Positions 1 through 54,284 of a DNA stretch of 64,000 nt are shown here, piece after piece (within the stretch, counting starts at the first letter, position 1; each line of letters begins with the position of its first letter). A program made the position numbers and the translations under genes. The notes beneath the pieces are model-generated. The model saw only the letters and a list, made by a program, of their open reading frames with translations, searched no databases and had not been told where the DNA came from. The DNA lies in NCBI GenBank assembly GCA_027482685.1, contig JAIXVU010000001.1, forward strand, positions 64,910 to 128,909. Direction: 5' to 3'. The DNA comes from a bacterium. GTDB taxonomy: Bacteria; Patescibacteriota; Minisyncoccia; Phycocordibacterales; UBA5272.

Positions 1-427
1 CCAGAATCCTCAAGTCTACAATGGTGCAGGACATAATGGTGTTGACTTTGGTGTTCCAAGCGGAACTCCATTATATTCAGCAGCTGCAGGTACTGTCCTT
101 GGCACTGGAGATACTGATCTTGCCTGTAGCGGTGTGTCATACGGTAAGTGGGTTTTAATTAAGCATCCAAATGGACTAACCACGCTTTACGCACATCTAT
201 CTGTTATACAGGTGTCTACTGGTCAAGCTGTAACATCCGGGCAAAAAATAGGACTCTCTGGAAATACAGGTTATAGTACTGGACCGCATTTACATTTTAC
301 AGTATTTGCATCTGATGCAGTACGTATCTCGGGGCCAACAGAGTATAAGAGTAGAGTATGCGGTACGTATATGATATTGCCACTTTCTCCGCGATCGGGC
401 TACCTCAACCCACTTACGTACTTTTAG
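1..427 (+). CDS. M23 family metallopeptidase (LytM-like), C-terminal part; 5' end truncated by the window edge
   Basis: The frame is open from position 2. The translation HNGVDFGVPSGTPLYSAAAGTV...GNTGYSTGPHLHF matches the M23 HxxxD / HxH zinc-binding motifs. A TAG stop lies at 428-430. Confidence 0.7.
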   Translation, partial: QNPQVYNGAGHNGVDFGVPSGTPLYSAAAGTVLGTGDTDLACSGVSYGKWVLIKHPNGLTTLYAHLSVIQVSTGQAVTSGQKIGLSGNTGYSTGPHLHFTVFASDAVRISGPTEYKSRVCGTYMILPLSPRSGYLNPLTYF

Positions 428-885: not shown

Positions 886-1419
886 ATGCCATCTGTTACA
901 CCTAAAAAAGTAAAACCCCTTAGAGCGCAACCTTCACAGCTCATAGATACAGATGTCGTATCTTGCTCGTCTGATAATTCCAGGGATTTCTCACAGAGCT
1001 TCATGTATAACTTACATCAGATTTTCTTTCTCCTTGAGAAACATCTTGAGTCTACCCTTCTTCGAGATAAGAATATTTCTTTTTCTCAGTTCATGATTCT
1101 TGTAGGGTTTGATTGCCGAAAGGAGAAAAGCATTTCTCAAAAAATGATAGCTGAAAAGTTATATCTTACAGAAGCAACTGTAAGTCGCCATATAAATACT
1201 CTTGTTAAACTCGGCCATCTTGTCCAAACTATTGATAAAGAAAATCGTCGCAAGAAAACGATCGATATAACCCTGTCAGGAAAAAAGGCTTTTGAGAAAG
1301 CTAGAAACAGCATCGATAAAGAACTTAATGTAATTTTTGCTTCTATTTTAGTATCTGACCGAGCATCCATCCTTAAAAATTTTACAAACGTACGTAAACA
1401 ACTTCTTACCAAGAAGTGA
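886..1419 (+). CDS. MarR-family transcriptional regulator; the likely true start is internal, at about 1003 (MYNLHQ...)
   Basis: A winged-HTH-like segment SISQKMIAEKLYLTEATVSRHINTLVKLGHLV is present, the size is about 140 aa from the internal Met, and the gene sits directly upstream of an efflux operon. Confidence 0.6.
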   Translation: MPSVTPKKVKPLRAQPSQLIDTDVVSCSSDNSRDFSQSFMYNLHQIFFLLEKHLESTLLRDKNISFSQFMILVGFDCRKEKSISQKMIAEKLYLTEATVSRHINTLVKLGHLVQTIDKENRRKKTIDITLSGKKAFEKARNSIDKELNVIFASILVSDRASILKNFTNVRKQLLTKK

Positions 1420-1440
1420 TTATTATAAACACATCTATAT

Positions 1441-3072
1441 ATGAACAAACATCTGTCTAGAATCCTAACCTATATCAAACTCATATCACAGCAACTCAAA
1501 GAATGGTTCATGGAGCTAACAATACGTAACAAAGTCCTAGTCATAGTTACCCTTCTTGTCGCTATCTTTATAGTTAGCAATCTCTTTGGTGGTAAAACAA
1601 TCACAGAAGAGGTTGTAAATGCTCCACGTGCGGTTACTCTTGTTACACTTAATGATCTTGCAAACGGTGAGGCGGGTCTTCCTCTTTTAGGAACAGTAAC
1701 ATCAGTGAGTGAGGCAACTATTAGATCAGAATCTTCTGGTAAGCTAACTCGCGTATACAGAAAGTTAGGTGATTTTGTATCTGCTGGACAAGTAATTGCA
1801 GAGTTTGAGAATAGTGCTGAACGAGCTTCGGTTCTTCAAGCGGAAGGTGCGTATGACGCTGCAAAAGCAGCACGTGATATTGCACGTATAAACAGCGGAA
1901 CAACAAATACTTCACTAACTGATACTAAGCAGAGCGCTCTTAATGCTATCTCTAACGCGTATGTAACTATGGATGATAGTATTCGTGTAAAGACCGATGC
2001 CGCATATAAAAATCCTCGTAATGACGACCTGCGGTTCATTGTTTCTGTTCCAGATTCTGCTCTTGTGCTCTCTCTTGAAACAAAAAGAAAGTTGATAGAA
2101 AAAACTCTTCTTGCTCGTGAAGCTCGTAACAAAACCCTAACAACAAGTAGCGATCTTCAATCAGAACTACAACAAGTCCAGAACGAAGTACAAACAGTGA
2201 AGCTTTATCTTGATGATTTAGCTACTGCATATGCCAAAGCAATACCAGATAACACATTCACTCAAGTAGCTCTTGATGGTAATAAAGTAACAGTTGGAGG
2301 AGTACGGTCAGTAATTTCAGGAACAATTAACTCTTTAGTTGGTGCTAAAACCGCTCTCTCTAATAGCTCCGCTGCACAAGAAATTGCCGGTAAGACTAGT
2401 GGTCAAGGAGATACAGGAGTTACAACGGCAGATGCTGGTGTAAAACAAGCACTCGGCGTGTACCAAGGAGCTCTTTCTAGATTAGAAAAGACAGTTATTC
2501 GTAGTCCAATTAGCGGTACCCTTAACTCTCTTTCAATCGAAACAGGAGATTTTATACAAAGTTTTACTGAGATAGGTGTTGTGTCTAATAACGGATCACT
2601 TGAGGTTGTAACCTACGTAACAGAGGATAATAAAAACCGCGCAATTGTAGGAACCCCAGTAGTTATTGATGGTAATGTTAAAGGTGTTATTACACGTGTT
2701 GCAGGAGCGCTTGATCCTCGTACTAAAAAAATTGAGGTTCGTATAGGTATTACAGATAAACAGACAAAACTTATCAATGGTCAATCTGTTCGTATAGAAG
2801 TAACAACTCCAGTCAGTAAAAATACTACTTCAAAAACTCAAGTGAAAAAAGATACCCCAGCTAATGTCCCTCTCTCAGCACTCAAGATAACACCAAAAGG
2901 CAATTTAGTATTTACCGTAGATGCTTCAAGTACTCTTGTTGCAATTCCTGTAACTATTGGAGCATTACTTGGAGATGAGATTCAGATTCTTGATGGACTG
3001 GATGCAAATGTTCAAATTGTAAAAGATGCTCGTGGGTTAAAGGAAGGTCAATCAGTAACAATAAGCGAGTAA
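1441..3072 (+). CDS. Efflux RND periplasmic adaptor subunit (membrane fusion protein, HlyD family)
   Basis: It has an N-terminal TM helix, long coiled-coil segments, a lipoyl/beta-barrel-like motif (VIRSPISGTLNSLSIETGDFI), and lies directly upstream of an RND permease. Confidence 0.7.
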   Translation: MNKHLSRILTYIKLISQQLKEWFMELTIRNKVLVIVTLLVAIFIVSNLFGGKTITEEVVNAPRAVTLVTLNDLANGEAGLPLLGTVTSVSEATIRSESSGKLTRVYRKLGDFVSAGQVIAEFENSAERASVLQAEGAYDAAKAARDIARINSGTTNTSLTDTKQSALNAISNAYVTMDDSIRVKTDAAYKNPRNDDLRFIVSVPDSALVLSLETKRKLIEKTLLAREARNKTLTTSSDLQSELQQVQNEVQTVKLYLDDLATAYAKAIPDNTFTQVALDGNKVTVGGVRSVISGTINSLVGAKTALSNSSAAQEIAGKTSGQGDTGVTTADAGVKQALGVYQGALSRLEKTVIRSPISGTLNSLSIETGDFIQSFTEIGVVSNNGSLEVVTYVTEDNKNRAIVGTPVVIDGNVKGVITRVAGALDPRTKKIEVRIGITDKQTKLINGQSVRIEVTTPVSKNTTSKTQVKKDTPANVPLSALKITPKGNLVFTVDASSTLVAIPVTIGALLGDEIQILDGLDANVQIVKDARGLKEGQSVTISE

Positions 3073-3102
3073 TAATTAGCAACACCTTAACTTTCTACAT
3101 CT

Positions 3103-6100
3103 ATGCACTCACTCTGGATATTTTTTCTAAAAAAACGAGCTTTTACCTATATGGTAATGTTCGCTCTTGTTACTGTTGGGTTATACTCGCTTGTCGCAAT
3201 TCCTAAAGAATCATCACCCGAAGTCATCATTCCTGTTGGGGTTGTATCAACTGTTCTCCGTGGAGCATCCGCTGAAGATACAGAAAAGCTCATCACTAAT
3301 AAGATTGAAGAAGAAGTTGGCAACATTGAAAATATAGATACAGTAACCTCGTCATCTCGTGAAGGTGTGTCTGTTGTTACAGCACAGTTTAACGCGTCTG
3401 CTGATATAGATAAATCTATTCAAGATCTGAAAGACGCTGTAGATAGAGCAAAGCCTGATTTACCATCTGATGCTCTTGAGCCAGTTGTGACTAAGATAAA
3501 CTTCTCTGACCAGCCTATAGTTATTGTGTCTATCTCACAAGATGTATCCCCTGCTACTCTTACTGCTCTTGGAGATGAGCTTGAAAGTGAGATGAAGAAA
3601 ATAAAAGGAGTATCTAAAGTAGAAGTTGCCGGCACAAGGAAACGCGAAGTACAAGTTGTTATTCGAAAGGATCAACTTGCAAAGTATGGTCTCTCGATAT
3701 CGCAAGTCATAGGTGCTGTATCGTCGGCTAATGCATCATTACCTATTGGTCGTATTACTGTAGCTGATGTTGACTATCCGATTACGTTTGCTGGAGATAT
3801 TACAGAAGGCTCTCAAGTGTCTGATATTACTATCACCTCAAATAATGGTGTGCCTATTTATCTTCGTGATGTTGCTTTTGTGTCTGATGGTTTGCAATCT
3901 CCTACAACATTCTCTCGTGTATCTGTTAACGGAGCTCCAGCTGAACAAGCACTCACGCTTAATATTTACAAAAAATCAGGTGGAGATGTTACAAAGATTG
4001 CGTCTGATGTTCGTGCAAAACTTGATGAGCTTAAAAAAACTACACTCGCTTCATCTCAAGTTGTAATTTCTTTTGATAGAGGCTCACTTGTTGAGAAGGA
4101 TCTCAAAGACCTTACTCGTGTGGGGTTAGAAACGGTTGCTCTTGTGATGCTAGTACTATTTCTAACTATCGGGTGGCGTGAGTCTATTGTAGCTGGACTT
4201 TCTATTCCCCTCTCGTTTGTTATTGCGTTTATTGGACTATACGCCTCAGGGAATACGATTAACTTTGTGTCACTCTTTTCGTTGATTCTTGCTATTGGTA
4301 TTTTGGTGGATTCGGGTATTGTGGTAGCCGAAGGGATACATACACGTATGAAAAAATTCGGCAACTCAGAGACTGCTGCACTAGCAACCATAAAAGAATA
4401 TGCATGGCCTCTCATTGCTGGAACAATGACTACTGTTGCTGTGTTTGCACCACTTTTCTTTATTTCAGGGACAACAGGTAAGTTTATTGCATCTATTCCC
4501 TTTACCATTATATTCGTATTGATTGCCTCAATCTTCGTAGCCCTTGGTATGGTTCCCCTTCTTGCTATTTTACTTACAAAGCCTCACAGTGAAGGTCGTC
4601 TTGAAAAGATGCAAGAACATCTCTCAGTATCTGCTCGTGCATGGTATAAGAAATTATTAGGTATTATTTTTGCGAGTCGGAAGCTTCAAAATAGGTTCTT
4701 TCTTGCTCTTGGTGTTGGTTTTGTTATTTCACTGTTGCTTCCTGTGCTTGGGCTAGTAAAAGTACAGTTCTTCCCACAGGATAACCAAGACTTCGTATAC
4801 ATCACTCTTGAAAAGCCACAAGGTACACCACTTTCTGTTACCGATCTTGGTATTCGTCAGGTGGAAGAGAGTCTCTATACAAGTTCGCTTGTAGATTCTT
4901 TCGTAACGACAGTTGGTGCTGGATCTGCATTTGCTGATAACGGAGGCGGAGTAAATACTAAGATTGCAAACATCACTGTTATTCTAAAGAAAGATAGAGA
5001 GCTAACATCTACTGAAGCCATAGAAGTATTCCGTAAAGACTTTTCTCTTATTACATCCGCTGATGTTCGTGTCTCACAAGGTAATAATGGCCCACCATCT
5101 GGTGCTCCTGTCGTTATAAAATTCTTAGGAGATGACTTAGATGCACTGTCCCTCACAGCTGATAACGCAGAGAGAATACTAAAAACAGTTGATGGCACTC
5201 TTGATGTACAGACCTCTCTTCGCGATGATGGTACACAGTTTGAAATTAAGATAGACAGAGCAAAAGCAGCCCAAGTAGGCCTAACTGCAGCATCTGTTGC
5301 TCAGACACTTCGCGCTTCGGTCTCAGGCGTTACCGCAACAACTATCAAGAAACAATCAGATGATATCGATGTCGTTGTAAAGTCTGACCTTAACGGTAAC
5401 TTTATCAACCCAGAAGATACCATTAAAACAACAATAGATAGTATCACTGAACTCCCTATCACAACACCAACGGGTACTATATTACTAGGCTCTCTTGTAG
5501 ATGTTTCTGTTGTTCCTTCACGCGCTGTTATTAATCATGAAGATATGAAGCGTCTCGCAAGTGTCTCCAGCCAGCTCAAGCCTGACGCAACAGCTGTTGA
5601 AGTAGTATCCGCATTTAAAAAACGAGAGAAAGAACTCAATCTCCCAGAAGGTGTATCCATAAATTATGGTGGAGAAAATGAAGAAGTAAATAATTCATTC
5701 CGTGACATGTTCCTCGCTCTCATTGCCGGTATGGTCGGTATGCTTGCAATACTTGTTCTTGAGTTCAATTCATTCCGATTTGCACTGTATCTACTTTTCA
5801 CCGTACCGTTATCGCTTATTGGAGTGTTGGGAGGACTCGCAATCACAGGTAAAACACTATCGTTCTCATCCATGCTTGGATTTATCGCACTCGCCGGAGT
5901 TATCATTAACCATGCTATTATCTTGCTTGATTCTATCTTACATAGACTAGAAGCAGAAAAGATAGCAAAGAGCGGGCTTAAACTATATGACATTGTTATC
6001 GACTCTGCATCTATTCGTCTACGTCCTATCATCCTCACTACCGTTACCACTGTTGTGGGAATGATACCACTAGCAGGAGCATCAGCTCTTTGGGGACCAC

Positions 6101-6210
6101 TTGCGTTTGCCATTATGTTCGGACTGACATTTGCAATGATACTAACACTTATTCTTGTTCCCCTCCTCTTCTATAGATATCCAGGGAAGAAGTATGAAGA
6201 TATGAAGTAG
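3103..6210 (+). CDS. RND efflux transporter permease (AcrB/AcrD/AcrF family)
   Basis: The 1035-aa protein has two 12-TM-like hydrophobic blocks separated by large periplasmic loops, the typical AcrB architecture and size. Confidence 0.85.
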   Translation: MHSLWIFFLKKRAFTYMVMFALVTVGLYSLVAIPKESSPEVIIPVGVVSTVLRGASAEDTEKLITNKIEEEVGNIENIDTVTSSSREGVSVVTAQFNASADIDKSIQDLKDAVDRAKPDLPSDALEPVVTKINFSDQPIVIVSISQDVSPATLTALGDELESEMKKIKGVSKVEVAGTRKREVQVVIRKDQLAKYGLSISQVIGAVSSANASLPIGRITVADVDYPITFAGDITEGSQVSDITITSNNGVPIYLRDVAFVSDGLQSPTTFSRVSVNGAPAEQALTLNIYKKSGGDVTKIASDVRAKLDELKKTTLASSQVVISFDRGSLVEKDLKDLTRVGLETVALVMLVLFLTIGWRESIVAGLSIPLSFVIAFIGLYASGNTINFVSLFSLILAIGILVDSGIVVAEGIHTRMKKFGNSETAALATIKEYAWPLIAGTMTTVAVFAPLFFISGTTGKFIASIPFTIIFVLIASIFVALGMVPLLAILLTKPHSEGRLEKMQEHLSVSARAWYKKLLGIIFASRKLQNRFFLALGVGFVISLLLPVLGLVKVQFFPQDNQDFVYITLEKPQGTPLSVTDLGIRQVEESLYTSSLVDSFVTTVGAGSAFADNGGGVNTKIANITVILKKDRELTSTEAIEVFRKDFSLITSADVRVSQGNNGPPSGAPVVIKFLGDDLDALSLTADNAERILKTVDGTLDVQTSLRDDGTQFEIKIDRAKAAQVGLTAASVAQTLRASVSGVTATTIKKQSDDIDVVVKSDLNGNFINPEDTIKTTIDSITELPITTPTGTILLGSLVDVSVVPSRAVINHEDMKRLASVSSQLKPDATAVEVVSAFKKREKELNLPEGVSINYGGENEEVNNSFRDMFLALIAGMVGMLAILVLEFNSFRFALYLLFTVPLSLIGVLGGLAITGKTLSFSSMLGFIALAGVIINHAIILLDSILHRLEAEKIAKSGLKLYDIVIDSASIRLRPIILTTVTTVVGMIPLAGASALWGPLAFAIMFGLTFAMILTLILVPLLFYRYPGKKYEDMK

Positions 6211-6295
6211 GGTACATTTGTGTTCTTGATAAGAAGGTATTAGGTGATTCGATACGTCGCAAACTCATTGTAAAAGTTTTGTTGTCTTTCTTTGT

Positions 6296-6387
6296 AACCC
6301 CACTATTTCAAAGCACGACAATTTCTTGCTAGAAATTGTCTCTGTTCCGCGCCGTCGCGCTACACAAGGCTTTGAAATAGTGGGGTT
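6296..6387. repeat. Nested inverted-repeat element: 19-bp arms AACCCCACTATTTCAAAGC (6296-6314) and GCTTTGAAATAGTGGGGTT (6369-6387) enclose an inner 9-bp-stem palindrome GACAATTTC-TTGCTA-GAAATTGTC
   Basis: Both arms are exact reverse complements when read directly from the sequence. The element lies at the junction between the AT-rich backbone and the GC-rich cassette. Confidence 0.6.
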
Positions 6388-6404
6388 GGGTGTGGTGGAA
6401 TACA

Positions 6405-6456
6405 ATACAAAAAAGCCCCTCACTCACGTCGTCACGACATTAGTATTGAGGGGCTT
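6405..6456 (-). terminator. Intrinsic terminator for the GC-rich minus-strand gene
   Basis: An inverted repeat AAGCCCCTCA (6413-6422) / TGAGGGGCTT (6447-6456) is followed on the minus strand by a U-tract (plus-strand AAAAAA at 6408-6414), about 40 nt after the stop at 6497. Confidence 0.55.
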
Positions 6457-6496
6457 GGTCATCCATGGGCCTTCACAGGCGGTGGATGACGAGAGT

Positions 6497-7675
6497 TCAC
6501 TTCTGCTTCACATCCACGACTGCATTGGCGCGGTTCGGGATGTAGGCGCAACGTTCGTCCGGTTTCAGCTTCACTCCACCGCAGGTTGTTTGCGGAACGT
6601 TCTTGACGACTTTCGGAGTGAAGGACTGAATGAATGGCGCCTTGGGGGCCTCGATCCTGGGTGCAGGGTCGATGGCGACCGGTGGGGTGAACACCGCTGG
6701 CGGGCGCGGAGTACGGAAGACCTGTGTCTCCGTATATCCACATGGGAGCTTCTGAATGTTGTTTCCGAAGCTCTGGACACCGCCTTGATTGCTCACACCC
6801 AGGGCTCCATTCTGACCGTTTGCGGCAATACCGCTGCCGGCTGAACTGCCAACAATGAAGTTTGTGATCACGGCCTGATAGCCGCTCACACGACGTTGCA
6901 TTGTTACAAGATCCCCATCAATCCCGACAACTTCCCAGTTGTGGAAGACGTGAGAGGATCCGGGCACGGGCACGATCTTGGAGACTGTGCCATTTGACCT
7001 GGTCTTGGTGACCAATCCAAGGAAGGTGGCATGAGTTGCCACGACTTCACGGTCTACCTCGACTGTGAAGTCTCCTCCACAGCTCGTGATGATGCTCATC
7101 CCGAGCTGGCTCGCAGACATGATCTGCGGAGGGAGGCCTACCACTGCCGACTGCACTGGCGCGCGCACTGCTTGGTACACAGTGCCGCCGATCGTAGTGG
7201 TGGTCGTGTTGCCCGCAGCGCCGTTCGCTGAAGCTTGACCGAAACCGCCAGCACCCCCAGTTGCACGAACGTTGTTCGTGATCTGGTTGATGTTCTCGTT
7301 CGCGCTTGTGATGCGCGACTGGAGCTCTGTCCGTTGCTGATTGCGTTGTTCCGCAGTCAGTGTCTGATTCGACTCGAGCGAGGTCATCTGGGTCTGGAGG
7401 CTGTTGAGCTCCGCCCGAGCCGCTGCTAGAGCAGCTTGCTGTTGTGCAGCCGTTGCAGCTGCAGCAGTGTTCAATTCCGACGGAGCCGGTTGCGGGGTTG
7501 CGGGTGTTGTCGGCGGATGGTTGGTCTTCGGGCAGACGGGGTCTGCACTGTGAGCCGAACCAGGTCCGTTCGCACGATCCCAGTCAACGCACTCTTGCTG
7601 AGTCCACGCGAAGGCGGGGCTCGCAAAGAGCATGGCCATGACTGCCGCCGCGATGGCGCTGATGATCTTTTCCAT
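6497..7675 (-). CDS. Secreted Pro/Thr/Ala/Gln-rich coiled-coil protein of foreign (high-GC) composition; function unknown
   Basis: There is a signal peptide MEKIISAIAAAVMAMLFASPAFA, a Shine-Dalgarno GGAGAG (plus-strand CTCTCC, 7682-7687) 6 nt upstream of the ATG, and its own promoter and terminator. The gene is about 58-60% GC against a backbone of about 35%. The overlapping antisense ORFs are artefacts of the high GC content. Confidence 0.6.
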   Translation of the reverse strand: MEKIISAIAAAVMAMLFASPAFAWTQQECVDWDRANGPGSAHSADPVCPKTNHPPTTPATPQPAPSELNTAAAATAAQQQAALAAARAELNSLQTQMTSLESNQTLTAEQRNQQRTELQSRITSANENINQITNNVRATGGAGGFGQASANGAAGNTTTTTIGGTVYQAVRAPVQSAVVGLPPQIMSASQLGMSIITSCGGDFTVEVDREVVATHATFLGLVTKTRSNGTVSKIVPVPGSSHVFHNWEVVGIDGDLVTMQRRVSGYQAVITNFIVGSSAGSGIAANGQNGALGVSNQGGVQSFGNNIQKLPCGYTETQVFRTPRPPAVFTPPVAIDPAPRIEAPKAPFIQSFTPKVVKNVPQTTCGGVKLKPDERCAYIPNRANAVVDVKQK

Positions 7676-7767
7676 TTCGTTCTCTCCGTGGTTGCACGCG
7701 GTCTTTTTTAAATAACCAACGTGCAGGTTGAAATATGAACCTTAAACTTCAAGGTACAGCTGATAAG

Positions 7768-7796
7768 ATTATAGCAGATAAAAGTGCTTTTGTCAA
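7768..7796 (-). promoter_or_regulatory. Consensus sigma70 promoter (TTGACA-N17-TATAAT) reading leftward into the GC-rich gene
   Basis: On the minus strand, TTGACA lies at 7796-7791, followed by a 17-nt spacer and TATAAT at 7773-7768. This is about 85 nt upstream of the start codon at 7675. Confidence 0.55.
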
Positions 7797-7878
7797 TAGT
7801 TATCTTGACAAAATTGAGTATGCTATTTTATATATAAAAATTGCAAAAAAGTATTGTAAAATATAGCTATTAATGAAT

Positions 7879-9156
7879 CTAGCAATGAGTTCCTGCTACG
7901 TAGCCAGTAGTCCAACAGAGTTGGAGACTGTAGCCACCGGATGGTCTATCTATATTAAGCACGTCTCCTGTTATGTAGAGATTCTTTATAATTCGTGACT
8001 CCATAGTTCTAAAATCTACTTCTTTGAGTGCTACTCCGCCGGAAGAGACAACCGCTTTATCTTTTCCAAGTAGTTCTTTTACGTGAAGTGGTACTGCTTT
8101 CAAGAGTTTTACTATCGTTACCCTATCCTCACTACGTACACTGTGGCAAAATGTCTGCCCGTCAATCCCGGACAGTTCTAATATTGTAGCAATAAGTGTA
8201 CTTGGGATTAATTGGCTTAGGATGTTTTTTATTTTTTTATTGCTCTCATTTACTAAAAGAGTCTGAAGACGTTGTTTAAGAGCATTTGTATCGAGCTGTG
8301 GGAAGAGATCAAGCATAACAGTAACATCACCATACTTACATAACTCCCCTACGTCTTTGCTCATGTTAAGGACTGTTGGTCCGCTTATTCCGAAATGTGT
8401 GAAAAGGACTTTACCTTTGTAACTTTCCTGTTTGACGAGAGTTTCGTTATGGCTTTGATAGGTAGTGAGTTTGATATCTGTGAGTGTTAGCCCACTTACT
8501 TTCTTTACCCATGAGTCATGAAGGGCAATAGGTACAAGTGCCGCATCATCAACTGATATTGTATGTCCGAGCTTCTTTAACCAATTGAACCCTTCCCCTG
8601 TTGACCCAGTTTCTGGACGTGATGTTCCTCCAGTTGCGAGAATACACGATGTCGCATCAAATGTATTACCACTTTTGGTGCGTATAGTTATGAGCTCTCC
8701 TCCTTTTTTAATAGATATGCTATCCACTATGGTGCTTTTACGGACAGTTACGTTGTGTTCTTTCATATAAATATCTAGTACATCGTAGACTGATTGTGCA
8801 GAGTCCGATATTGGGAACAGTCTCCCCTCGTTCTCCTCTTTCATTTTCATACCACGGGATTCAAAAAAATCAATTGTACTCTGTACATTAAACTGTGAAA
8901 AAGCAGAGAAAAGAAATTGATCGTTCCCTTTATATTTTGCGAGCATGGTGCGATTATCAGGTTTGTTATTTGTGACATTACATCTGCCTCCTCCTGTGAT
9001 GAGTAGCTTTTTACCAAGAGACGAATTTTTCTCAAGCAGAAGCACACGCTTACCACGAGATGCAGCTGTACCTGCTGCCATCATACCGCTTGCTCCTCCG
9101 CCAATAACTATAACGTCCCAGACTGAGTTAGTATTTATTTTGTTTGTACCATTCAT
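7879..9156 (-). CDS. HI0933/BaiN-like NAD(P)/FAD-dependent oxidoreductase (aminoacetone oxidase family flavoprotein)
   Basis: The N-terminal Rossmann motif VIVIGGGASGMMAAGTAA and the hallmark LLITGGGRCNVTN are present, and the size is about 425 aa. Confidence 0.75.
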   Translation of the reverse strand: MNGTNKINTNSVWDVIVIGGGASGMMAAGTAASRGKRVLLLEKNSSLGKKLLITGGGRCNVTNNKPDNRTMLAKYKGNDQFLFSAFSQFNVQSTIDFFESRGMKMKEENEGRLFPISDSAQSVYDVLDIYMKEHNVTVRKSTIVDSISIKKGGELITIRTKSGNTFDATSCILATGGTSRPETGSTGEGFNWLKKLGHTISVDDAALVPIALHDSWVKKVSGLTLTDIKLTTYQSHNETLVKQESYKGKVLFTHFGISGPTVLNMSKDVGELCKYGDVTVMLDLFPQLDTNALKQRLQTLLVNESNKKIKNILSQLIPSTLIATILELSGIDGQTFCHSVRSEDRVTIVKLLKAVPLHVKELLGKDKAVVSSGGVALKEVDFRTMESRIIKNLYITGDVLNIDRPSGGYSLQLCWTTGYVAGTHC

Positions 9157-13258: not shown

Positions 13259-13340
13259 AACCTTGACAAAATGCGATTATATATACTGTTTTCGTCTTTC
13301 AAGACAAGACGTTCATTAACAAATGCTCAAGGAGAGCAAT

Positions 13341-13955
13341 ATGCAAAAGCAGATCAAGGAAGTTTCCATCTGGGGCGGTCTGATCATCGAGTGCCTCAAG
13401 AAGATGAAAGCTGTTGCCCTTCAAGGCAATGTCATCGCCAAGCAGGAGCTGAACGGTGTCATCGTTCTCGTCGAAGGCAACTCCGACGTGGACCTGCTGT
13501 TCCGCGACCAACAACGTGCGCAGTCGGGTTACATCGACGGCCTCGTTGGCCCTCATTCGAAAGCAGAACTTTCTGCCGACGACATCGCCAACGATCAGCG
13601 TATCCGTGAAGCCAACGAAGCACGTTGGGCGAAGGAAAGCGCTGAACGGAAAGTGATCCAAGACCAGAAGGAACGTGAATTCTTCGCCGAAATCAGTACC
13701 TGCCCTACGATGGATCGCGACGAAGCCAAGTGGCAAGAAGGCATCAAGGCGCAGAAAGGCGACGGCTACGGCCTCGCGGTCTACACCTACGCCGAGTACT
13801 TGGCACGTCTGATGCAGAAGAAAATGGCCGAGGGCTACAAGCTCGAAGCTGTCGCCGACGAGTGCTCCAACAAGGCCGACATCCCGTGTGGCATCTCGGG
13901 ATTTATGTACGGCTGTGCTGTGTCCTCTCTGGCGAACTGCTGGAAGCACGGCTAA
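13341..13955 (+). CDS. Hypothetical protein of foreign (GC-rich) composition, inserted between the AddA-like gene and its nuclease partner
   Basis: The Shine-Dalgarno AAGGAGAG lies 5 nt before the ATG at 13341, a TTGACA box sits at 13262-13267, and there is a strong terminator at 14091-14123. GC is about 57%. The antisense 252-aa ORF is rejected. Confidence 0.6.
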   Translation: MQKQIKEVSIWGGLIIECLKKMKAVALQGNVIAKQELNGVIVLVEGNSDVDLLFRDQQRAQSGYIDGLVGPHSKAELSADDIANDQRIREANEARWAKESAERKVIQDQKEREFFAEISTCPTMDRDEAKWQEGIKAQKGDGYGLAVYTYAEYLARLMQKKMAEGYKLEAVADECSNKADIPCGISGFMYGCAVSSLANCWKHG

Positions 13956-14090
13956 GAACTCCGTGTCTGGCACAACAAGAAGTACCAACTCAAGGACGAA
14001 GGTGACAAGGCAAACGCCTCTGGCGGTGTCCTGAACCCTGCGCTCCTTTCTTATCAATTGATTTCTTAAGAAATCTCGTCACTGACGAAT

Positions 14091-14123
14091 ACCGCTCGCA
14101 ATATCTTGCGAGCGGTTCTTTTA
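14091..14123 (+). terminator. Intrinsic terminator (CCGCTCGCAA-TATC-TTGCGAGCGG followed by TTCTTTT)
   Basis: Read directly from the sequence, 135 nt downstream of the stop at 13955. Confidence 0.6.
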
Positions 14124-14278
14124 TGTCCTACTACTCACACAACTTTTCTATGAGAATTGCCTTGCACAGTGCGACGGCGCGAGCAGAGCAAAAAGCTAGC
14201 AAGCTTTTATGCGTGCAATTCGATGGAAAAGTTAAAAAAGAATTTCACGAAATGTTCATTGTATCGAATCACTTAAAT

Positions 14279-18596: not shown

Positions 18597-19040
18597 ATGT
18601 CATGGGGCAAGTTCCAAAGCACGGGTGATCAAGTAGAAGCTCTTGTTTCTCGAAAGCAAGAGAACAGTCTGTGGGCAAGTTTAGACGGCATAACAAAGGT
18701 GCTTCTTGTACTCTATGTTGCCTTGCTGACGGTTCTCTTTGCTGGTATAAGTATGTACATGCTCTACCTCCTGAGCATCTCAAGAGTTTTCGGGGTTAGT
18801 GCGCTTCAAGTCACATCGCTCGTTGCTGTACCTCTTGTTGTGATAGGTCTCTGGCGTATCATCAGGAATAATAAGAGAGTTCTTCACCCAAAGGTGATCG
18901 GACTTGTCTCCGTCGTTTGCCTGTTCAATACATACATCTTGTATGTCAATAACTGGGTACCGATGTGGGCATATCTTGTACTATGTGCAATCTGCATTGC
19001 ATGTATGCTAGTGGCTGCTTACTTCAACAAACGGGCATAA
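18597..19040 (+). CDS. Hypothetical polytopic small membrane protein
   Basis: Three or four hydrophobic helices are present. GC is higher than the backbone, and a GC-rich terminator follows. Confidence 0.45.
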   Translation: MSWGKFQSTGDQVEALVSRKQENSLWASLDGITKVLLVLYVALLTVLFAGISMYMLYLLSISRVFGVSALQVTSLVAVPLVVIGLWRIIRNNKRVLHPKVIGLVSVVCLFNTYILYVNNWVPMWAYLVLCAICIACMLVAAYFNKRA

Positions 19041-19110: not shown

Positions 19111-19265
19111 ATTGATATCTAAAATTTGCAAAGCCATGGCCCTGTACAAGCGTATTTGGTACAAATAATATAGAACTTGACAGAATAAATATAGTAAGTA
19201 TAATATATATCGGATTGTGTCAAGTTCTATGTTTTTCAACCAACGATCACGAAAGGATCCTAACC

Positions 19266-19784
19266 ATGCGCTCACCGACTCAATGGCTGGCCGACCTCAT
19301 CGAGCCCCTCCTCCGTCGCATTGGCAGCTCAAGTCCGCTAAATGCAATCGCGACAAGCGAAAACTTCAAAGGCGTCGACAAAAAAACCAAAAGTCTTGAG
19401 AAGGGCTTCGCCACTTTTGTGAATGGCTTCGAAATCTGGTCTTTTGTCCTCGGATGGATCATCCTGTTAGTGGGGGTCGTCGCTTTTGTGATGAACATCA
19501 CCGGCGTCGTCCCTATCTATGCGGTAGGACTCTCAGGACTTTTCCTGATGATCCTTGGTTCGCTTCCTGTGATGACAGTGAACTTCTGCCGGTTCATGTT
19601 TGCGGGAATGAAATGGCACTTACTGTCTTTTATTCCAGCAGCTTGTATGTTCGCTTATGCGTTGCAGTTCATCCAGACTAAGGGAATTGCTGATATCAAT
19701 GCTGTGCAGAGCATTGTCATGTTCAACGCCTTCCTCGGTGCGCTGTGGACACTGAGATGGTTCTATAACTTCATCAGAAAGTGA
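19266..19784 (+). CDS. Hypothetical polytopic membrane protein (start chosen at the internal Met, MRSPTQ...)
   Basis: AAAGGATCC lies 5 nt upstream of the ATG at 19266. Four hydrophobic helices are present, GC is about 52%, and a GC-rich terminator follows. Confidence 0.5.
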   Translation: MRSPTQWLADLIEPLLRRIGSSSPLNAIATSENFKGVDKKTKSLEKGFATFVNGFEIWSFVLGWIILLVGVVAFVMNITGVVPIYAVGLSGLFLMILGSLPVMTVNFCRFMFAGMKWHLLSFIPAACMFAYALQFIQTKGIADINAVQSIVMFNAFLGALWTLRWFYNFIRK

Positions 19785-19793
19785 TGAAGACAA

Positions 19794-19824
19794 GGCCCGA
19801 GCGCGTACGCGCTCGGGCCTTTCG
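19794..19824 (+). terminator. Intrinsic terminator (GGCCCGAGCGCG-TA-CGCGCTCGGGCC followed by TTTCG)
   Basis: A perfect 12-bp stem was read directly. Confidence 0.5.
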
Positions 19825-36170: not shown

Positions 36171-38492
36171 TTATACTTTTGCGTACAGTTTCTCTTGGAA
36201 TTTGAAGAAAATTGAACGAATCAAATCAATATCACCAAGTACATCTTTTGCATCCTCAAGTGACTGATATTTGTTTGTGAGCAATATAGGTAATTTCTCT
36301 TGGTCTAATTCTTCTACACCTGTTTCGATATACTTACTTAATACGAACTCAATAAACTCTTTTTGTTTATCATTAAGAGATTCAAAAATAGTTTCCTGAG
36401 ATGTTTCCACTCTTATATCTCTTGGTATTGGTTTAATATCACTATTAAATACATATTCCAACACATCAAAAAGATCACTATTCTCAGCATCAATCAATTT
36501 CTGTAATGTAGTTAATTCGTCTTTTCCATATCCTGCTTCGTCTAGTTTTTCTAGTAAACTTTTTCTAGTTATTGGATTACTCCAAATTTCTCGTAATTCT
36601 TCTTCACTTGTAAAGAATTTAGGTAATGTCCCAAACAAGTTTTGTAAAAACTCTTCCACAGAAATAGGTTTACCGTCTGCACCCCAAAATGAAGTTGCAA
36701 TCATGTGCTGTATTTCACGCTCTTTCCCATCTCGTAACTTAATCTTAAGTTTCTTATTCGGTTCAGTTGGTGGTTCTGGTGGAAAAGGTGGTTCACCCTC
36801 TACTCCTTTTGGTGGTTTAGGTTCCGTAGGTTCGTCATCTACTGGACTGATTGGTTCACCATCCCACTCAGGATCTGCAAAATGATGATAGGCATCTACA
36901 AAGTCATAAATAGTGAAGAACTCCTTACCGTCAAATAAACGTGTACCACGCCCCACAATTTGCTTAAACTCAATCATAGAGTTCACTGGTCGCATTAGAA
37001 CAATATTACGAATATTTCTAGCATCTACTCCAGTTGAAAGTTTCTGTGAAGTGGTGAGTATGGTCGGTATAGTTTTTTCGTTATCTTGGAACTCTCTCAA
37101 GAACTGTTCTCCTATTTCTCCGTCGTTAGCAGTAACACGCACACAATAATTTGGATCAGTGCTTTTCTTGTACTGATTAATCAAATCTCGAACAGCAGCC
37201 GCATGATCTTGAGTAGCACAGAAAACAATAGCTTTTTCATTTTGATCAGCTTCATCCATAAATACTTTCACACGCTTTTCCTCTCTCGCTTTAATTTCGA
37301 TTATCTTATTAAAATCAGGTTCGGTATAAAGTTTTCCTTCCTCGATTTCCCCTTCGATGATTTGGTCATCACTTGTATAAATATAATCGTCTAATGTTGT
37401 CTTAATACGCTTAACCTTAAAAGGAGTAAGGAAACCATCATTTATGCCTTCTTTTAGAGAATAAATATATACTGGCTCACCAAAGTATTTATACGTATCT
37501 ACATTGTCCTTACGTTTTGGTGTGGCTGTTAAACCTAATTGCACAGCAGGAGAAAAATATTCCAAGATTCCTCTCCAGTTTCCTTCGTCGTTTGCACCAC
37601 CACGATGACATTCGTCTATAATAATAAAATCAAAGTAATCAGGTGAGTATTCTCCGAAGTATGGGGCAGGATTACCATCTACATCTTTACCACTCATAAA
37701 GGTTTGAAAGATAGTAAAGAATATAGAGCCATTAGTAGGTACACTTCCTTTTTTACTTATCTCTTTTGGATTGATACGTACAAGAGAGTCTTCTGGAAAT
37801 GAAGAGAATGAGTTATATGCTTGGTCAGCTAGTATGTTTCTATCTGCTAAAAATAGAATACGAGGACGACGAGAACCATCACGCTTTAAGTTCCATCTTG
37901 TCTGAAAAAGTTTCCATGCAATCTGAAAAGCAATAGCTGTTTTACCTGTACCAGTGGCTAATGTTAGTAAGATACGATCCTTATTATTTGCAACAGATTC
38001 AAGAACATTTTTTACTGCTATTTCTTGATAGTAACGTAATTGCCAAGATCCACTCTTATCTTCAAATGGAACAGAACTAAACTTTTCCCTCCATTCATTT
38101 TGAACTGCAAAAGTTTTATTCCAAAGTTCGTCAGGAGAAAGATACTCAGAAACTAAACCCTCAATACCTGTTTTCATACAGATACTGTATATTTCTTTTC
38201 CATTTGTGGAATAGGTTGTTTCTATGTTTAATTTCTCTGCGTACTGCTTGGCTTGTGCAACACCTTCACCAACCCCTATGTTTGCACTCTTTGCCTCAAC
38301 CACAGCCAATTTTATGCCTTTGTAGACCAATACATAATCAGCAGTAAGTAACTTTCCTCTTATACCTCCAGTTTGAATTTTACCAGCAGTAATATTGTAT
38401 TCACGGAGTATTTTAGATCCTTCAATAACACCCCAACCACAATCTTTTAGCTTTGGATCAATTAGCTCTGCCCTTGTTTCAGATTCGTTCAT
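36171..38492 (-). CDS. hsdR: Type I restriction enzyme R subunit (HsdR), compact form
   Basis: The N-terminal HsdR nuclease domain (AVVEAKS), the SF2 motifs LATGTGKT and IIIDECHRG, and a position at the end of the hsdM-hsdS operon all fit HsdR. Confidence 0.8.
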   Translation of the reverse strand: MNESETRAELIDPKLKDCGWGVIEGSKILREYNITAGKIQTGGIRGKLLTADYVLVYKGIKLAVVEAKSANIGVGEGVAQAKQYAEKLNIETTYSTNGKEIYSICMKTGIEGLVSEYLSPDELWNKTFAVQNEWREKFSSVPFEDKSGSWQLRYYQEIAVKNVLESVANNKDRILLTLATGTGKTAIAFQIAWKLFQTRWNLKRDGSRRPRILFLADRNILADQAYNSFSSFPEDSLVRINPKEISKKGSVPTNGSIFFTIFQTFMSGKDVDGNPAPYFGEYSPDYFDFIIIDECHRGGANDEGNWRGILEYFSPAVQLGLTATPKRKDNVDTYKYFGEPVYIYSLKEGINDGFLTPFKVKRIKTTLDDYIYTSDDQIIEGEIEEGKLYTEPDFNKIIEIKAREEKRVKVFMDEADQNEKAIVFCATQDHAAAVRDLINQYKKSTDPNYCVRVTANDGEIGEQFLREFQDNEKTIPTILTTSQKLSTGVDARNIRNIVLMRPVNSMIEFKQIVGRGTRLFDGKEFFTIYDFVDAYHHFADPEWDGEPISPVDDEPTEPKPPKGVEGEPPFPPEPPTEPNKKLKIKLRDGKEREIQHMIATSFWGADGKPISVEEFLQNLFGTLPKFFTSEEELREIWSNPITRKSLLEKLDEAGYGKDELTTLQKLIDAENSDLFDVLEYVFNSDIKPIPRDIRVETSQETIFESLNDKQKEFIEFVLSKYIETGVEELDQEKLPILLTNKYQSLEDAKDVLGDIDLIRSIFFKFQEKLYAKV

Positions 38493-44004: not shown

Positions 44005-44209
44005 TGTGAGAGATTTATTTGTCTACAAAAATGCCTTAGCAAAAGACCTTTTATGCGATATAATCAATAGATTAATACAAGAGTATTAAGAGAAAAAATT
44101 TGCAGTAGCCTAACCCTTTAAGTAATTAAAGGTATGGTGAAAAAGTCCTATCAGATCAAAAACCCCATCATGTGGGCTTTGCTCTGATAGGCCATATCTG
44201 GAAACGGAT

Positions 44210-45040
44210 ATGAAGGTCGCAAGACCTTACTCACGTGGTGGGATTTTTGCTTCCCAACGAGAGATTACTAAGTCCTATCAGACATATATGAACCAATCAG
44301 CATCTCCTTTTGGAGATAATTTTAGATATTTAGTAGAAGAACGAATCAAAAACTTTTGGGGATATGGTAACTTTAAAAGTGATATATGGTTTGTCGGAAT
44401 GGAAGAAGGTCACAGTGGAGATATTGAAAGTTTAGTTAAAAGATTAGAAGCTACGAAAGACAAAGAGACTCTGGATATCTATGATGACATGAAGCATGAT
44501 GTTGCTCATATGAAGTGGTTTGAAGAAGGAGCGAAAACTCAAGCAACGTATCGTCGACTAATTTATATATTACTCTATCTTAAAAACAAGGTAGAGCCGA
44601 CATTAGAGGAGATAAGACAATTTCAAATAAAAGAATTTGGTAGAAAAACATCAAATCATACAGCTCTTGAATTAATGCCACTTCCTGCAAAATCTATTAA
44701 TGCAAAAGATTGGGTATATAAGGAAGCGAATATAGAAGGATTGAATACTCGAAAAGAATATTTAGCAACATATAGACCAAGACGTATAGCACGACTTCGT
44801 GAATTAATTTCTATACATAAACCAAAGATTGTTATTTTCTACTCAAGGGTATATTTACCAGAATGGAGAGAAACGATACCTGTACCTTTAGAAGAAATTA
44901 AGGATACTAAACTTCATATAGCAAAAGACCACAACACGTTATATGTTGTAGTCCCTCACTCAACCTCTTACGGCATATCACTTAGTGATTGGAAGAAGAT
45001 TGCAGAAACATTAGTTAGTCACCATAGTCATCATCATTAA
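44210..45040 (+). CDS. Hypothetical protein (the likely start is internal). It has weak uracil-DNA-glycosylase-superfamily-like motifs (VGMEEGHSG; VVPHSTSYG), which are speculative
   Basis: ORF only; the motif resemblance is by eye. Confidence 0.35.
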   Translation: MKVARPYSRGGIFASQREITKSYQTYMNQSASPFGDNFRYLVEERIKNFWGYGNFKSDIWFVGMEEGHSGDIESLVKRLEATKDKETLDIYDDMKHDVAHMKWFEEGAKTQATYRRLIYILLYLKNKVEPTLEEIRQFQIKEFGRKTSNHTALELMPLPAKSINAKDWVYKEANIEGLNTRKEYLATYRPRRIARLRELISIHKPKIVIFYSRVYLPEWRETIPVPLEEIKDTKLHIAKDHNTLYVVVPHSTSYGISLSDWKKIAETLVSHHSHHH

Positions 45041-54257: not shown

Positions 54258-54284
54258 GCAATTCCACTTTTGAAGGAGTTTGCA

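Follow-up and report, generated by a model that had tools for sequence, protein, structure and literature searches.

A GC-rich gene for a predicted exported protein in a Patescibacteria genome: a self-contained transcription unit from a family with a shared compositional deviation

When a GC-rich gene stands out in an AT-rich genome, recent transfer is the usual interpretation. The gene at 6497..7675 on the minus strand of the 64,000-nt stretch of DNA analysed here (hereafter, the window) is of this kind, and it raises the questions of where it came from, how its composition is maintained, and what its product does. The CPR/Patescibacteria account for a large share of bacterial diversity and live on other cells; to our knowledge, almost none of their surface or effector proteins has been characterised. 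A CPR-confined family of disulfide-bonded proteins that are predicted to be strongly expressed and exported would be a concrete candidate for the host interface. We consider it probable, though well short of firm, that the gene forms a transcription unit of its own that is accessory and horizontally mobile, that its foreign composition is a family trait, and that its product is exported.

Composition and transcription unit of the gene

Overall GC was 0.589 in the gene, 0.385 in the whole window, and 0.380 in the window minus the gene. An earlier sequence-only reading of this DNA had placed the gene at 58–60% GC, in agreement with the measured 58.9%, and far above the backbone; this contrast holds, although its figure of about 35% for the backbone was slightly low (38.0%). 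In 100-nt windows, GC was 0.49–0.66 from ~6300 to 7700 and dropped to 0.24–0.33 at 7700–7900. The GC1, GC2, and GC3 values of the gene were 0.60, 0.52, and 0.65, respectively (GC3 0.649), compared with a backbone GC3 mean of 0.308 (sd 0.084; 53 other window ORFs of at least 120 aa). Codon usage also set the gene apart as a strong outlier: its synonymous-codon log-likelihood under backbone usage was −1.50, against −1.045 ± 0.057 for the backbone (z = −7.9, with 23 backbone genes as the reference), and its two-fold purine-ending codons were shifted from A to G (AAG 0.83, CAG 0.62, GAG 0.57). Re-encoding the 392-aa protein with backbone codons gave a GC of 0.458, and amino-acid content thus accounts for only approximately one-third of the excess. 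The compositional anomaly was not unique to this gene, as other window genes, including one phage-type gene, also showed it.

The sequence-only reading had described a self-contained cassette with a perfect sigma-70 promoter, a GGAGAG Shine-Dalgarno site, and a hairpin/U-tract terminator. All of these parts were found (Table 1), and promoter, ribosome-binding site, ORF, and terminator together form one transcription unit. Only four 12/12 sigma-70 sites occur in the 64-kb window, one of them being the promoter of this gene, from which transcription would start near 7761. A TTGAC(A/G) promoter was present at the same place in four homolog loci (L003, L004, L092, and L204). A GC-rich leader hairpin at 7686–7701 overlapped the first two G of GGAGAG. 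Conservation of a two-hairpin leader was confined to the L003/L004/L092 subgroup. A leader RNA conserved across the whole family was unsupported, the covariation term over five leaders being unfavourable, and the leader (7676–7761) gave 0 matches in Rfam, whether at the gathering threshold or with E allowed up to 5. The terminator was overlooked by a simple scan because of the length of its loop. The L007 homolog has a near-identical terminator 3′ of the gene, and the terminator therefore travels with the gene.

Table 1. Features of the gene, its product, and the adjoining palindrome (nucleotide positions refer to the window).
Feature	Position	Strand	Remarks
Sigma-70-type promoter	7768..7796	−	TTGACA-17-TGcTATAAT; 12/12 consensus, extended −10 (TG before −10)
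5′ leader, ~85 nt	7676..7761	−	small hairpins at 7739–7755 and 7717–7730, read from sequence
Ribosome-binding site	7682–7687	−	GGAGAG, 6 nt before ATG at 7675
CDS, 392 aa	6497..7675	−	modules in the rows below
Signal peptide	residues 1–23		MEKIISAIAAAVMAMLFASPAFA, then WT; judged by eye
Cys loop	residues C29–C48
Pro-rich linker	residues 50–66		contains PTTPATPQPAP
Helical hairpin	residues 68–137
Gly-rich linker	residues 154–163		conserved GNTTTTTIGG motif
Beta-rich core	residues ~158–320		invariant C198 and C311
Pro-rich segment	residues 320–350
C-terminal tail			basic, two Cys
Intrinsic terminator	6407..6456	−	10-bp GC-rich stem AAGCCCCUCA/UGAGGGGCUU (arms 6413–6422/6447–6456), structured 24-nt loop, then U6 on the minus strand
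Three-way-junction palindrome, 92 nt	6296..6387	−	19-bp perfect outer stem
Box GTATCGAATCACCTA	6241..6256	−	30 nt from AcrB stop codon at 6210

The predicted exported product and its family

As judged by eye, the N-terminus has the n-, h-, and c-regions of a signal peptide (MEK, IISAIAAAVMAMLFA, and SPAFA followed by W, respectively) with an AXA motif, which supports the Sec-type signal peptide claimed earlier; full-length family members also carry signal peptides. The proline-rich linker, the Gln/Ala-rich helical stretch, and the Gly/Asn-rich segments described in the same reading were likewise all present in the product. Across the family, C198, G228, G264, and C311 of the core were invariant. 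AF2 modelling with 5 sequences was useless (pLDDT 42), whereas 20 family sequences gave a model usable for the core, with pLDDT values of 77–89 for the helical hairpin and 80–93 for the beta core. Searches of Pfam, PHROGs, and NCBIfam with the protein returned no match beyond sub-threshold coiled-coil noise, to which we assigned the matches to IcmG/DotF, TraP, and HK97 capsid (E above 1e-3). Pfam showed nothing recurrent over all 20 family members, and a PDB sequence profile search with the protein gave 0 matches. Two viral models in BFVD matched the AF2 model (E 2e-7 and 1e-6) with TM-scores of at most 0.23, and helical and low-complexity stretches may account for these matches.

Given this architecture, the promoter would drive high constitutive transcription and the Sec pathway would export the product, with signal peptidase I cutting after AFA. 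The helical hairpin could serve as a stalk or oligomerisation module. The putatively disulfide-bonded beta-rich core, with its long beta-hairpins and Gly/Ser/Asn-rich loop, may form the working head at the cell surface, most likely an adhesin or a membrane-active effector that would bind or perturb the envelope of the cell serving as partner or host.

A word index of 5.8 billion proteins placed the family in 5 clusters, and 28 representatives were found among 1.84 billion proteins. The closest relative of the 392-aa protein was only 44% identical. One homolog has a named source, a Candidatus Moraniibacteriota MAG, and the rest are metagenomic, in CPR-like and partly UGA-recoded contexts. A scan of 185,579 GTDB species-representative genomes with the family motifs gave 186 pattern hits and 0 relatives. 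No match was obtained by tblastn with three family members as queries against 50,697 phage records, in 72,556 plasmids searched for the family, or by blastn (distant mode) with the whole cassette against plasmid DNA, and an IMG/VR scan for the family was empty. These proteins constitute a very small, unannotated family of modular, predicted exported proteins, so far found only in CPR-type genomes.

The GC excess over the flanks was present in all 11 loci, i.e., the window locus and ten homolog loci from independent metagenomes. The gene/flank GC values in the latter were.65/.50 (L003),.65/.58 (L004),.60/.45 (L007),.64/.53 (L009),.59/.40 (L091),.61/.43 (L092),.62/.38 (L094),.60/.47 (L204),.57/.46 (L206), and.62/.51 (L207), and the GC3 of the family gene topped that of its neighbours in 6/6 loci tested gene by gene. 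The family has no conserved neighbours, and its contexts differ between lineages. Synteny was conserved among L003, L004, and L009; the L003 and L004 orthologs had a dS of 0.42 and a dN/dS of 0.14, a sign of purifying selection. In a tandem pair of family paralogs, the excess was retained through duplication. Three loci (L091, L094, and L206) belong to UGA-recoded genomes. The L094 family gene contains 0 TGA among 42 Gly codons, with P 2e-6 under flank usage and 0.07 after scaling for the depletion of A-ending codons; after this correction, UGA avoidance was dropped as independent proof of foreignness. GC-rich, A-ending-poor codons are a family-wide trait, whatever the composition of the host genome.

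Genomic neighbourhood and the 92-nt palindrome

On one side, the gene is flanked by an RND efflux operon (MarR, HlyD-like, and AcrB) whose 3′ end is convergent with it, and on the other by an HI0933-like flavoprotein gene. The SerRS of this genome was 83–85% identical to MAG proteins, the named ones belonging to Candidatus Paceibacterota; the chromosome is that of a Paceibacteria-like member of the Patescibacteria and not of a Saccharibacterium living on Actinobacteria. The nearest HI0933 homolog (67% identical) came from a Saccharibacteria MAG without synteny, and of 80 loci reached via the HI0933 neighbour, the 10 closest were compared, none of which had the efflux operon or the cassette. 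Neither direct repeats nor prophage genes were found flanking the gene, and no mobility gene or tRNA was located near it (the nearest recombinase is at 42.6 kb and the nearest tRNAs at 32.9 kb and 60 kb). A neighbouring GC-rich cassette (13323..13955) matched Pfam Tad4 and PHROG 9822, and Bacillus phages hold homologs that are 46–49% identical to its product; a search of IMG/VR with this Tad4-like protein was empty.

Approximately 20 nt beyond the terminator, and co-oriented with the gene, lies a palindrome that folds at −52.4 kcal/mol (z −6.6). It adjoins the gene unit, yet it is not part of the gene unit of the family, and it was absent from all family homolog loci. It is one copy of a widespread CPR repeat, of which 85 distinct metagenomic copies were found with an invariant three-way junction as their core, common to genomes of 32–59% GC. 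Copies were found in frame in CysRS, LeuRS, TsaD, RecR, MiaA, HrcA, GT4, and PrmC, and Pfam domains were stretched or split at the insert in 6/6 cases checked (CysRS, TsaD, RecR, MiaA, HrcA, and GT4); the CysRS of the window itself is without the insert. The two copies in the window are both intergenic; each closely follows the terminator of a GC-rich cassette and has the same orientation as that cassette. A general link between the palindrome and GC-rich islands was rejected, since the GC profile around 83 distinct metagenomic copies was flat. The box GTATCGAATCACCTA recurs at the second copy (14261–14275, plus strand) and is specific to this genome, 0/89 metagenomic palindrome copies carrying it. 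The palindrome (6296–6387) likewise had 0 matches in Rfam under either cut-off (gathering threshold or E up to 5), and ten further palindrome loci gave only sub-threshold matches to generic miRNA-hairpin models. The element core was not found in IMG/VR, and no literature was found on the core, its peptide, or RPEs in CPR. The palindrome thus poses a separate question, as an apparently undescribed repeat that lies in frame in aminoacyl-tRNA synthetases and other essential CPR genes.

Origin of the gene and comparison with known systems

The usual reading of such a gene calls for caution here, because the same GC excess is found throughout the family in hosts of 38–58% GC, UGA-recoded ones included, and through vertical descent. 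Being common to every family member examined and persisting through a dS of 0.42 and a tandem duplication, the excess is no clock of recent transfer and needs another explanation, either a GC-rich reservoir common to the family or selection acting on its codons or mRNA. In Patescibacteria, horizontal transfer of single genes and islands is reported to be common and to occur mostly between Patescibacteria (PMC12455944). That the gene was acquired we infer from its composition and patchy distribution only, and any direction of transfer is putative; its foreign composition would be kept either by selection or by gene exchange that still goes on in a pool of higher GC. A bolder version, which we regard as unlikely, posits a GC-rich, UGA-free ‘floating’ gene pool among CPR with different genetic codes, whose reservoir would be an unsampled GC-rich vector or partner. 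The product would then be a new type of pore-forming or host-envelope-binding exoprotein that episymbionts use on their hosts, and in this genome such cassettes would have been captured beside copies of a CPR-wide selfish three-way-junction palindrome that marks recombinogenic or permissive sites.

The persistence of the excess through dS 0.42 and tandem duplication is at least as compatible with long residence as with repeated transfer. A native, vertically inherited gene, in which selection (e.g., for mRNA stability, or for very high expression as a major surface protein such as one of the S-layer type) keeps GC-rich codons, deserves some weight, even if it is on balance not probable. It would account for the excess in 11/11 loci and for its retention in the syntenic orthologs, and its consensus promoter, long leader, and strong terminator are features typically seen in surface-protein genes with very high expression. 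However, the family has an extremely patchy distribution and unrelated surroundings from lineage to lineage, the AAG/CAG/GAG shift looks mutational or donor-like rather than like translational selection in an AT-rich genome, and the anomaly extends to other window genes, including the phage-type one. Rather improbable in our view is a moron-like gene from an unsampled higher-GC phage or plasmid of CPR bacteria, left behind or exchanged. Its own promoter and terminator, its foreign composition, the phage-related neighbouring cassette, and the two viral models in BFVD would fit such an origin, but prophage genes do not flank the gene, the searches of phages, plasmids, IMG/VR, and PHROGs were all negative, and the BFVD matches have low TM-scores and may come from helical or low-complexity parts.

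The sequence-only reading had taken the gene for a recent horizontal acquisition, possibly out of a high-GC host or partner organism, and had called its composition actinobacterial-looking. The GC3 and GC1 of the gene would suit a donor of ~55–60% GC, and CPR bacteria live as episymbionts and take up DNA from other organisms. We nevertheless disfavour this origin as very unlikely: Paceibacteria-like genomes form a group without a known actinobacterial host, the only named homolog comes from Candidatus Moraniibacteriota, the nearest relative is distant, and the family lies in AT-richer, CPR-like flanks wherever context is readable (in 10/10 homolog contexts, the flanks have lower GC than the gene). 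The phage, plasmid, and GTDB-representative collections yielded no homolog, none was found in surroundings that match the gene in composition, and ‘recent’ is unsupported for an excess that all family members share and that survived vertical descent and duplication. Site-specific capture of an integron-like cassette, with the palindrome as an attC-like site, is largely refuted and retains scarcely any probability. Both window palindromes lie just beyond the terminators of GC-rich cassettes in the same orientation, and ACCCAAC on the left flank agrees with the consensus RYYYAAC, but GTTACAA at the right end misfits GTTRRRY, there is no integrase or cassette array, and the cassettes have their own promoters. 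Moreover, the palindrome core is invariant, unlike attC sites, its 85 metagenomic copies have no GC-rich neighbour, and it is missing at the homolog loci and also occurs inside genes. Assembly chimerism or a contaminating fragment is extremely improbable. The promoter-side junction is reproduced in Logan contigs assembled from two further read sets, which run across it and match the window for 11.3 kb and 3.3 kb without a mismatch. The 3′ junction was unspanned by these assemblies, both gene-bearing contigs ending at 6332 and the AcrB-side contig at 6335, but this break falls in the loop of the −52 kcal/mol hairpin, the contigs on its two sides meet just as they do in the window, and the compositional pattern is repeated in ten independent loci.

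The favoured reading, an accessory and mobile single-gene unit, places the gene near genomic islets and phage morons, with which it shares a single ORF, an autonomous strong promoter, an intrinsic terminator, a composition and codon usage that deviate from the backbone, a position between unrelated housekeeping genes, and a patchy phyletic distribution with differing contexts. It differs in having no prophage, integrase or transposase, tRNA target, or direct repeat, no homologs in the phage collections searched, and no donor lineage of matching composition; moreover, classical un-ameliorated islets have no compositional deviation that is common to all relatives and hosts and lasts through vertical descent, and this family has both. 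Integron cassettes likewise combine a gene with an imperfect palindrome able to fold single-stranded, but they consist of promoterless ORFs in arrays next to intI, with RYYYAAC...GTTRRRY sites, whereas the gene here has its own 12/12 promoter, no intI or array, and a palindrome that departs from the attC consensus and is common without cassettes. With S-layer and surface-protein genes, it shares a consensus promoter, a hairpin leader of ~85–110 nt, a Sec signal peptide, and its stand-alone organisation; unlike them, the family has no sequence or fold match to S-layer or anchoring domains and is far too rare for a general envelope component.

The predicted core resembles beta-barrel pore-formers (aerolysin/ETX-MTX2, MACPF/CDC, and binary-toxin B) in its very long beta-hairpins, and its Gly/Ser/Asn/Ala-rich loop GSSAGSGIAANGQNGALGVSNQGGVQSFG resembles their amphipathic insertion hairpins. 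The top Foldseek PDB hits were the pore forms of perforin-2, CDTb, perforin, pleurotolysin, and aerolysin-like proteins, all non-significant (E 0.1–1, TM at most 0.13), and with no Pfam match or significant sequence or fold match, this modelled likeness is a resemblance and not membership. The 92-nt element, finally, recalls the RPEs of Rickettsia, to which it is likened by description and not by sequence. It differs from them in its unrelated clade (Patescibacteria), its invariant three-way-junction core, and the intergenic position of both window copies; like them, it is a dispersed palindromic repeat of ~100–170 nt in a reduced symbiont genome, and it lies between genes as well as in the reading frame of housekeeping genes, whose translation would add it to the protein as an extra peptide.

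Composition, surroundings and assembly support of the islet gene

The minus-strand islet gene (6497..7675, encoding a 392-aa exported-family protein) has a GC content of 0.589, against 0.380 in the remaining 64-kb window; in 100-nt windows, the GC-rich tract spans approximately 6300–7700 and falls to 0.24–0.33 across the promoter region. Its GC1, GC2 and GC3 values are 0.60, 0.52 and 0.65, and the mean GC3 of the 53 other window ORFs of at least 120 aa is 0.308 (sd 0.084). When scored with synonymous-codon frequencies taken from 23 long backbone genes (other genes of the window), the islet gene lay 7.9 SD under the leave-one-out distribution of backbone genes. Recoding the protein with backbone codons gave a GC of only 0.458, so synonymous choice accounts for about two-thirds of the excess. 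C- and G-ending codons alike are favoured (AAG 0.83, CAG 0.62, CCG 0.48, ATC 0.75), and ATA, TTA and AGA codons are entirely lacking. The sliding-window GC and codon check proposed in a sequence-only reading of this stretch thus identified a GC-rich (58.9%) codon outlier, as that reading had described, but in a backbone of 38% rather than 35% GC. The promoter, Shine-Dalgarno site and terminator that it had named were all present (Table), and the window contains only four promoter sites with a 12/12 match.

Features of the window, the islet protein and the family leaders
Feature	Position	Strand	Description
MarR / HlyD-like / AcrB operon	886..6210	+	3' end borders cassette
92-nt palindromic element, copy 1	6296..6387	-	~20 nt past islet terminator
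Islet terminator	6456..6407	-	10-bp GC stem, then U6; closes islet unit
Ribosome-binding site	6 nt before islet-gene ATG	-	GGAGAG
Sigma-70-type promoter	7796..7768	-	TTGACA-17-TATAAT, TG before -10; 12/12 match
HI0933-like flavoprotein gene	7879..9156	-	Other border of cassette
Tad4-like cassette	13264-14116	+	Second GC-rich self-contained cassette
Tad4-like gene	13323..13955	+	GC 0.556, GC3 0.71, codon-usage z -7.0
92-nt palindromic element, copy 2	14142..14240	+	Behind terminator of Tad4-like cassette
Membrane-protein ORF	18597-19040	+	Neighbours third unit; atypical codon usage, z -5.2
Third unit	19177-19822	+	12/12 promoter 19177-19204, GC-rich terminator
ORF of third unit	19215..19784	+	Small hydrophobic protein
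Orphan ORF, ~80 aa	24166..23921 (unit 24243-23880)	-	12/12 promoter, own terminator
Orphan ORF, ~80 aa	near 54286 (unit 54229-54545)	+	12/12 promoter, own terminator
LOOT RNA	44107-44228	+	Rfam RF03000, 93 bits
Signal peptide	Islet protein N-terminus		Sec-type, AFA|W
Two-Cys loop, Pro-rich linker	After signal peptide
Helical hairpin	Residues 68-137		pLDDT 77-89
Gly-rich linker			Conserved GNTTTTTIGG motif at its end
Beta-rich core	~residues 158-320		pLDDT 80-93 in most blocks; C198, C311 invariant
Pro-rich segment, basic tail	C-terminal part		Two more Cys in tail
Two-hairpin 5' leader	L003:9888-10000, L004:4312-4420, L092:726-835		Upstream of family gene

The window is chromosomal, with genes for CysRS, DnaB, SerRS, RmuC, a type I restriction enzyme and a large serine recombinase. 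The SerRS shares 83–85% identity with many MAG proteins, of which those with a name are Candidatus Paceibacterota; a search of 185,579 species representatives placed the closest HI0933 homolog, at 67% identity, in a Saccharibacteria MAG without shared synteny. These relatives, together with the gene content, identify the host as a Patescibacteria/CPR bacterium; it uses the standard genetic code. No integrase, tRNA or direct repeat was found at the islet borders.

Two Logan contigs, from read sets SRR16126875 and SRR16126878, encode the identical islet protein, show no mismatch to the window along 11.3 and 3.3 kb, and cross the junction of the GC-rich gene with the AT-rich upstream genes. The promoter-side junction, where the sequence-only reading had wanted chimerism excluded, was thus reproduced by two further read sets. 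Both contigs end at window position 6332, and an AcrB-carrying contig ends at 6335, in the inner hairpin (right arm 6331–6340) of a very stable structure; these contigs adjoin each other as they do in the window, and the 3' junction therefore agrees with the window, but no contig spans it independently. Chimerism is thus very unlikely, the more so since the GC pattern recurs at ten homologous loci in unrelated metagenomes. The ends of these three contigs, from two read sets, fall within 4 nt of one another, which probably reflects coverage or assembly drop-out at the −52 kcal/mol hairpin and may reflect population heterogeneity.

GC excess across the family and origin of the gene

The GC anomaly belongs to the family as a whole. 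In every homolog with fetchable DNA (10 loci), the family gene was richer in GC than its flanks (gene/flank: L003,.65/.50; L004,.65/.58; L007,.60/.45; L009,.64/.53; L091,.59/.40; L092,.61/.43; L094,.62/.38; L204,.60/.47; L206,.57/.46; L207,.62/.51), and its GC3 (0.64–0.85) was the highest among neighbouring genes in all six loci where genes were compared individually. Two tandem paralogs are present in L206 (3012-4361 and 5142-6338), both GC-rich. The orthologs in L003 and L004 differ with a dS of 0.42 and a dN/dS of 0.14, the latter indicating purifying selection on the family; since L003, L004 and L009 share the same neighbours, the gene was inherited vertically across this distance with its GC excess retained.

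TTGAC(A/G)-type promoters precede the family gene in L003, L004, L092 and L204, and terminators are kept within family subgroups, that of L007 being nearly identical to the window's. The two-hairpin leader, with the motif GTCGCATGA..CATGCTTCCGGGACA..GTCCCGTCGGC, occurs in L003, L004 and L092 only; the window leader is laid out similarly but has no alignable motif in common with it. From these shared signals, the unit of inheritance is the whole transcription unit. By eye, the unrelated loci L003 and L092 each have a tRNA-Ser-like gene approximately 250–330 nt downstream from the family gene; in L003 it is followed closely by the start of a copper-resistance island that is AT-richer and includes a large serine recombinase.

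L091, L094 and L206 come from UGA-recoded CPR genomes, with reading frames that become two- to three-fold longer once TGA is not a stop; the family gene in these loci has no in-frame TGA. In L094, the flanking genes contain 62 in-frame TGA codons, and none occurs among the 42 Gly codons of the family gene (P = 2e-6 by flank usage, 0.07 after allowing for scarce A-ending codons). Given the corrected value, TGA absence was rejected as an extra signal; it fits the GC signature and adds nothing to it.

Relatives of the islet protein were found in none of the GTDB representative genomes, 50,697 phage records (three queries), 72,556 plasmids or IMG/VR. The only named relative is from a Moraniibacteriota MAG, and all readable genomic contexts of relatives are CPR-like; nothing pointed to the Actinobacteria, which the sequence-only reading had suspected from the protein's composition. 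Its further proposal of a recent import from a high-GC host is not supported, the GC excess being family-wide and retained over dS 0.42. According to a published survey, Patescibacteria commonly show single-gene transfers and islands, mostly exchanged among Patescibacteria themselves (PMC12455944). In our reading, the islet family is accessory and horizontally mobile, and its GC-rich codon usage is maintained, with selection and a GC-richer reservoir as the candidate causes. The islet gene is better described as accessory, coding for an exported protein of a rare family that is restricted to CPR and for which GC-rich coding is a stable trait.

The putative exported protein

The islet protein had no match in Pfam or PHROG and no meaningful match in NCBIfam. 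A word-indexed search of 5.8 billion proteins retrieved four relatives, and an exhaustive profile search of 1.84 billion representatives retrieved 28, 23 of them with E <=1e-10. In some family members (P0011, P0023 and P0025), the N- and C-terminal modules are retained but flank another central domain, so the family architecture is modular. Among 20 family members no Pfam family was recurrent, and a profile built from them found no relative in the PDB.

Foldseek returned nothing significant for the islet protein model against the PDB. Beta-pore-forming proteins in their pore form (perforin-2, CDTb, perforin, pleurotolysin, aerolysin-like, and anthrax PA) nevertheless made up most of the top-ranked structures (E 0.14–1, non-significant), a ranking due to the model's long beta-hairpins; by analogy, the core's least confident loop, GSSAGSGIAANGQNGALGVSNQGGVQSFG, may resemble the Gly/Ser-rich insertion hairpins of beta-pore-forming toxins. 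Two viral models matched with E values of 2e-7 and 1e-6, but their TM was at most 0.23. On these results, we commit only to an exported, disulfide-stabilised and probably oligomeric protein that is secreted or at the surface. Its leading candidate role, proposed tentatively, would be that of an adhesin or membrane-active effector toward a partner cell.

The palindromic element and other self-contained units

Besides the islet gene, the window holds a second cassette (a gene with its own promoter and terminator) whose 210-aa product matches Pfam Tad4, a Thoeris inhibitor, and PHROG 9822 in its C-terminal domain and has 46–49% identical homologs in Bacillus phages. This cassette appears to be an insertion in opposite orientation, with a UvrD-like helicase / 104-aa ORF on one side and a PD-(D/E)XK nuclease gene on the other. 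In the third unit, the stretch 19267..19784 gave a codon-usage z of -9.6, for a frame that was not that of the ORF itself. Perfect consensus promoters seem to be reserved here for small autonomous accessory genes. With these units and the two orphan ORFs, the genome carries several autonomous, foreign-looking single-gene units, of which the islet gene is the largest. Elsewhere in the window, the LOOT RNA adjoins a large serine recombinase gene (42592-44004, minus strand) at the edge of an AT-rich stretch (38–44 kb, GC 0.28–0.33, strongly negative GC skew) beside a type I restriction R subunit gene (36171-38492), and this region is probably a mobile or defence island.

The 92-nt element lies at the same position and in the same orientation relative to the islet and Tad4-like cassettes. 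In copy 1, a perfect outer stem of 19 bp encloses two inner hairpins. Both copies have additional flanks in common that occur in this genome specifically, among them a TATCGAATCACYTAA box beside stop codons of backbone genes. Scanning metagenome contigs with 20 core bases recovered 108 stretches, 85 of them distinct true copies, mostly on groundwater and sludge contigs of 32–59% GC. The consensus folds as a three-way junction made up of an outer stem that is long and variable, an invariant CGCG-ACGG-CGCG hairpin and a variable hairpin with an AGCA loop; compensatory changes occur at 20 of the 24 consensus pairs. In the orientation written here, G-U pairs are more numerous (197 vs 107) and the folding energy is the lower one in 76 of 87 copies. 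Rfam 15 contains no family that matches the element, and no description of it was found in the literature. Its covariance model hit the window's two copies and no others, with no hit in any homolog locus, and the metagenomic copies had no GC-rich neighbour; the element is therefore not part of the family unit but a native CPR repeat. Its place beside the cassettes is most simply explained if both gather in permissive spacers between convergent genes, while the element may have taken part in cassette capture.

About a quarter of the copies lie inside long ORFs. In-frame copies are found within CysRS, LeuRS, TsaD, RecR, MiaA, HrcA, a GT4 glycosyltransferase and PrmC of other genomes, reading ...LAQRDGASRAIxQQxxMRVL... 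in sense or ...HAYSxAGELLCSRRRxAQG... in antisense. Among the six hosts checked with Pfam (all except LeuRS and PrmC), the domain was stretched or split at the element site in TsaD, RecR, MiaA and the GT4 glycosyltransferase; the window's own CysRS has no insert. The islet unit is kin to a known acquired islet or moron-like unit. The element is the more unusual object and merits its own study; its in-frame presence inside genes is the behaviour of Rickettsia palindromic elements, here in an unrelated clade.
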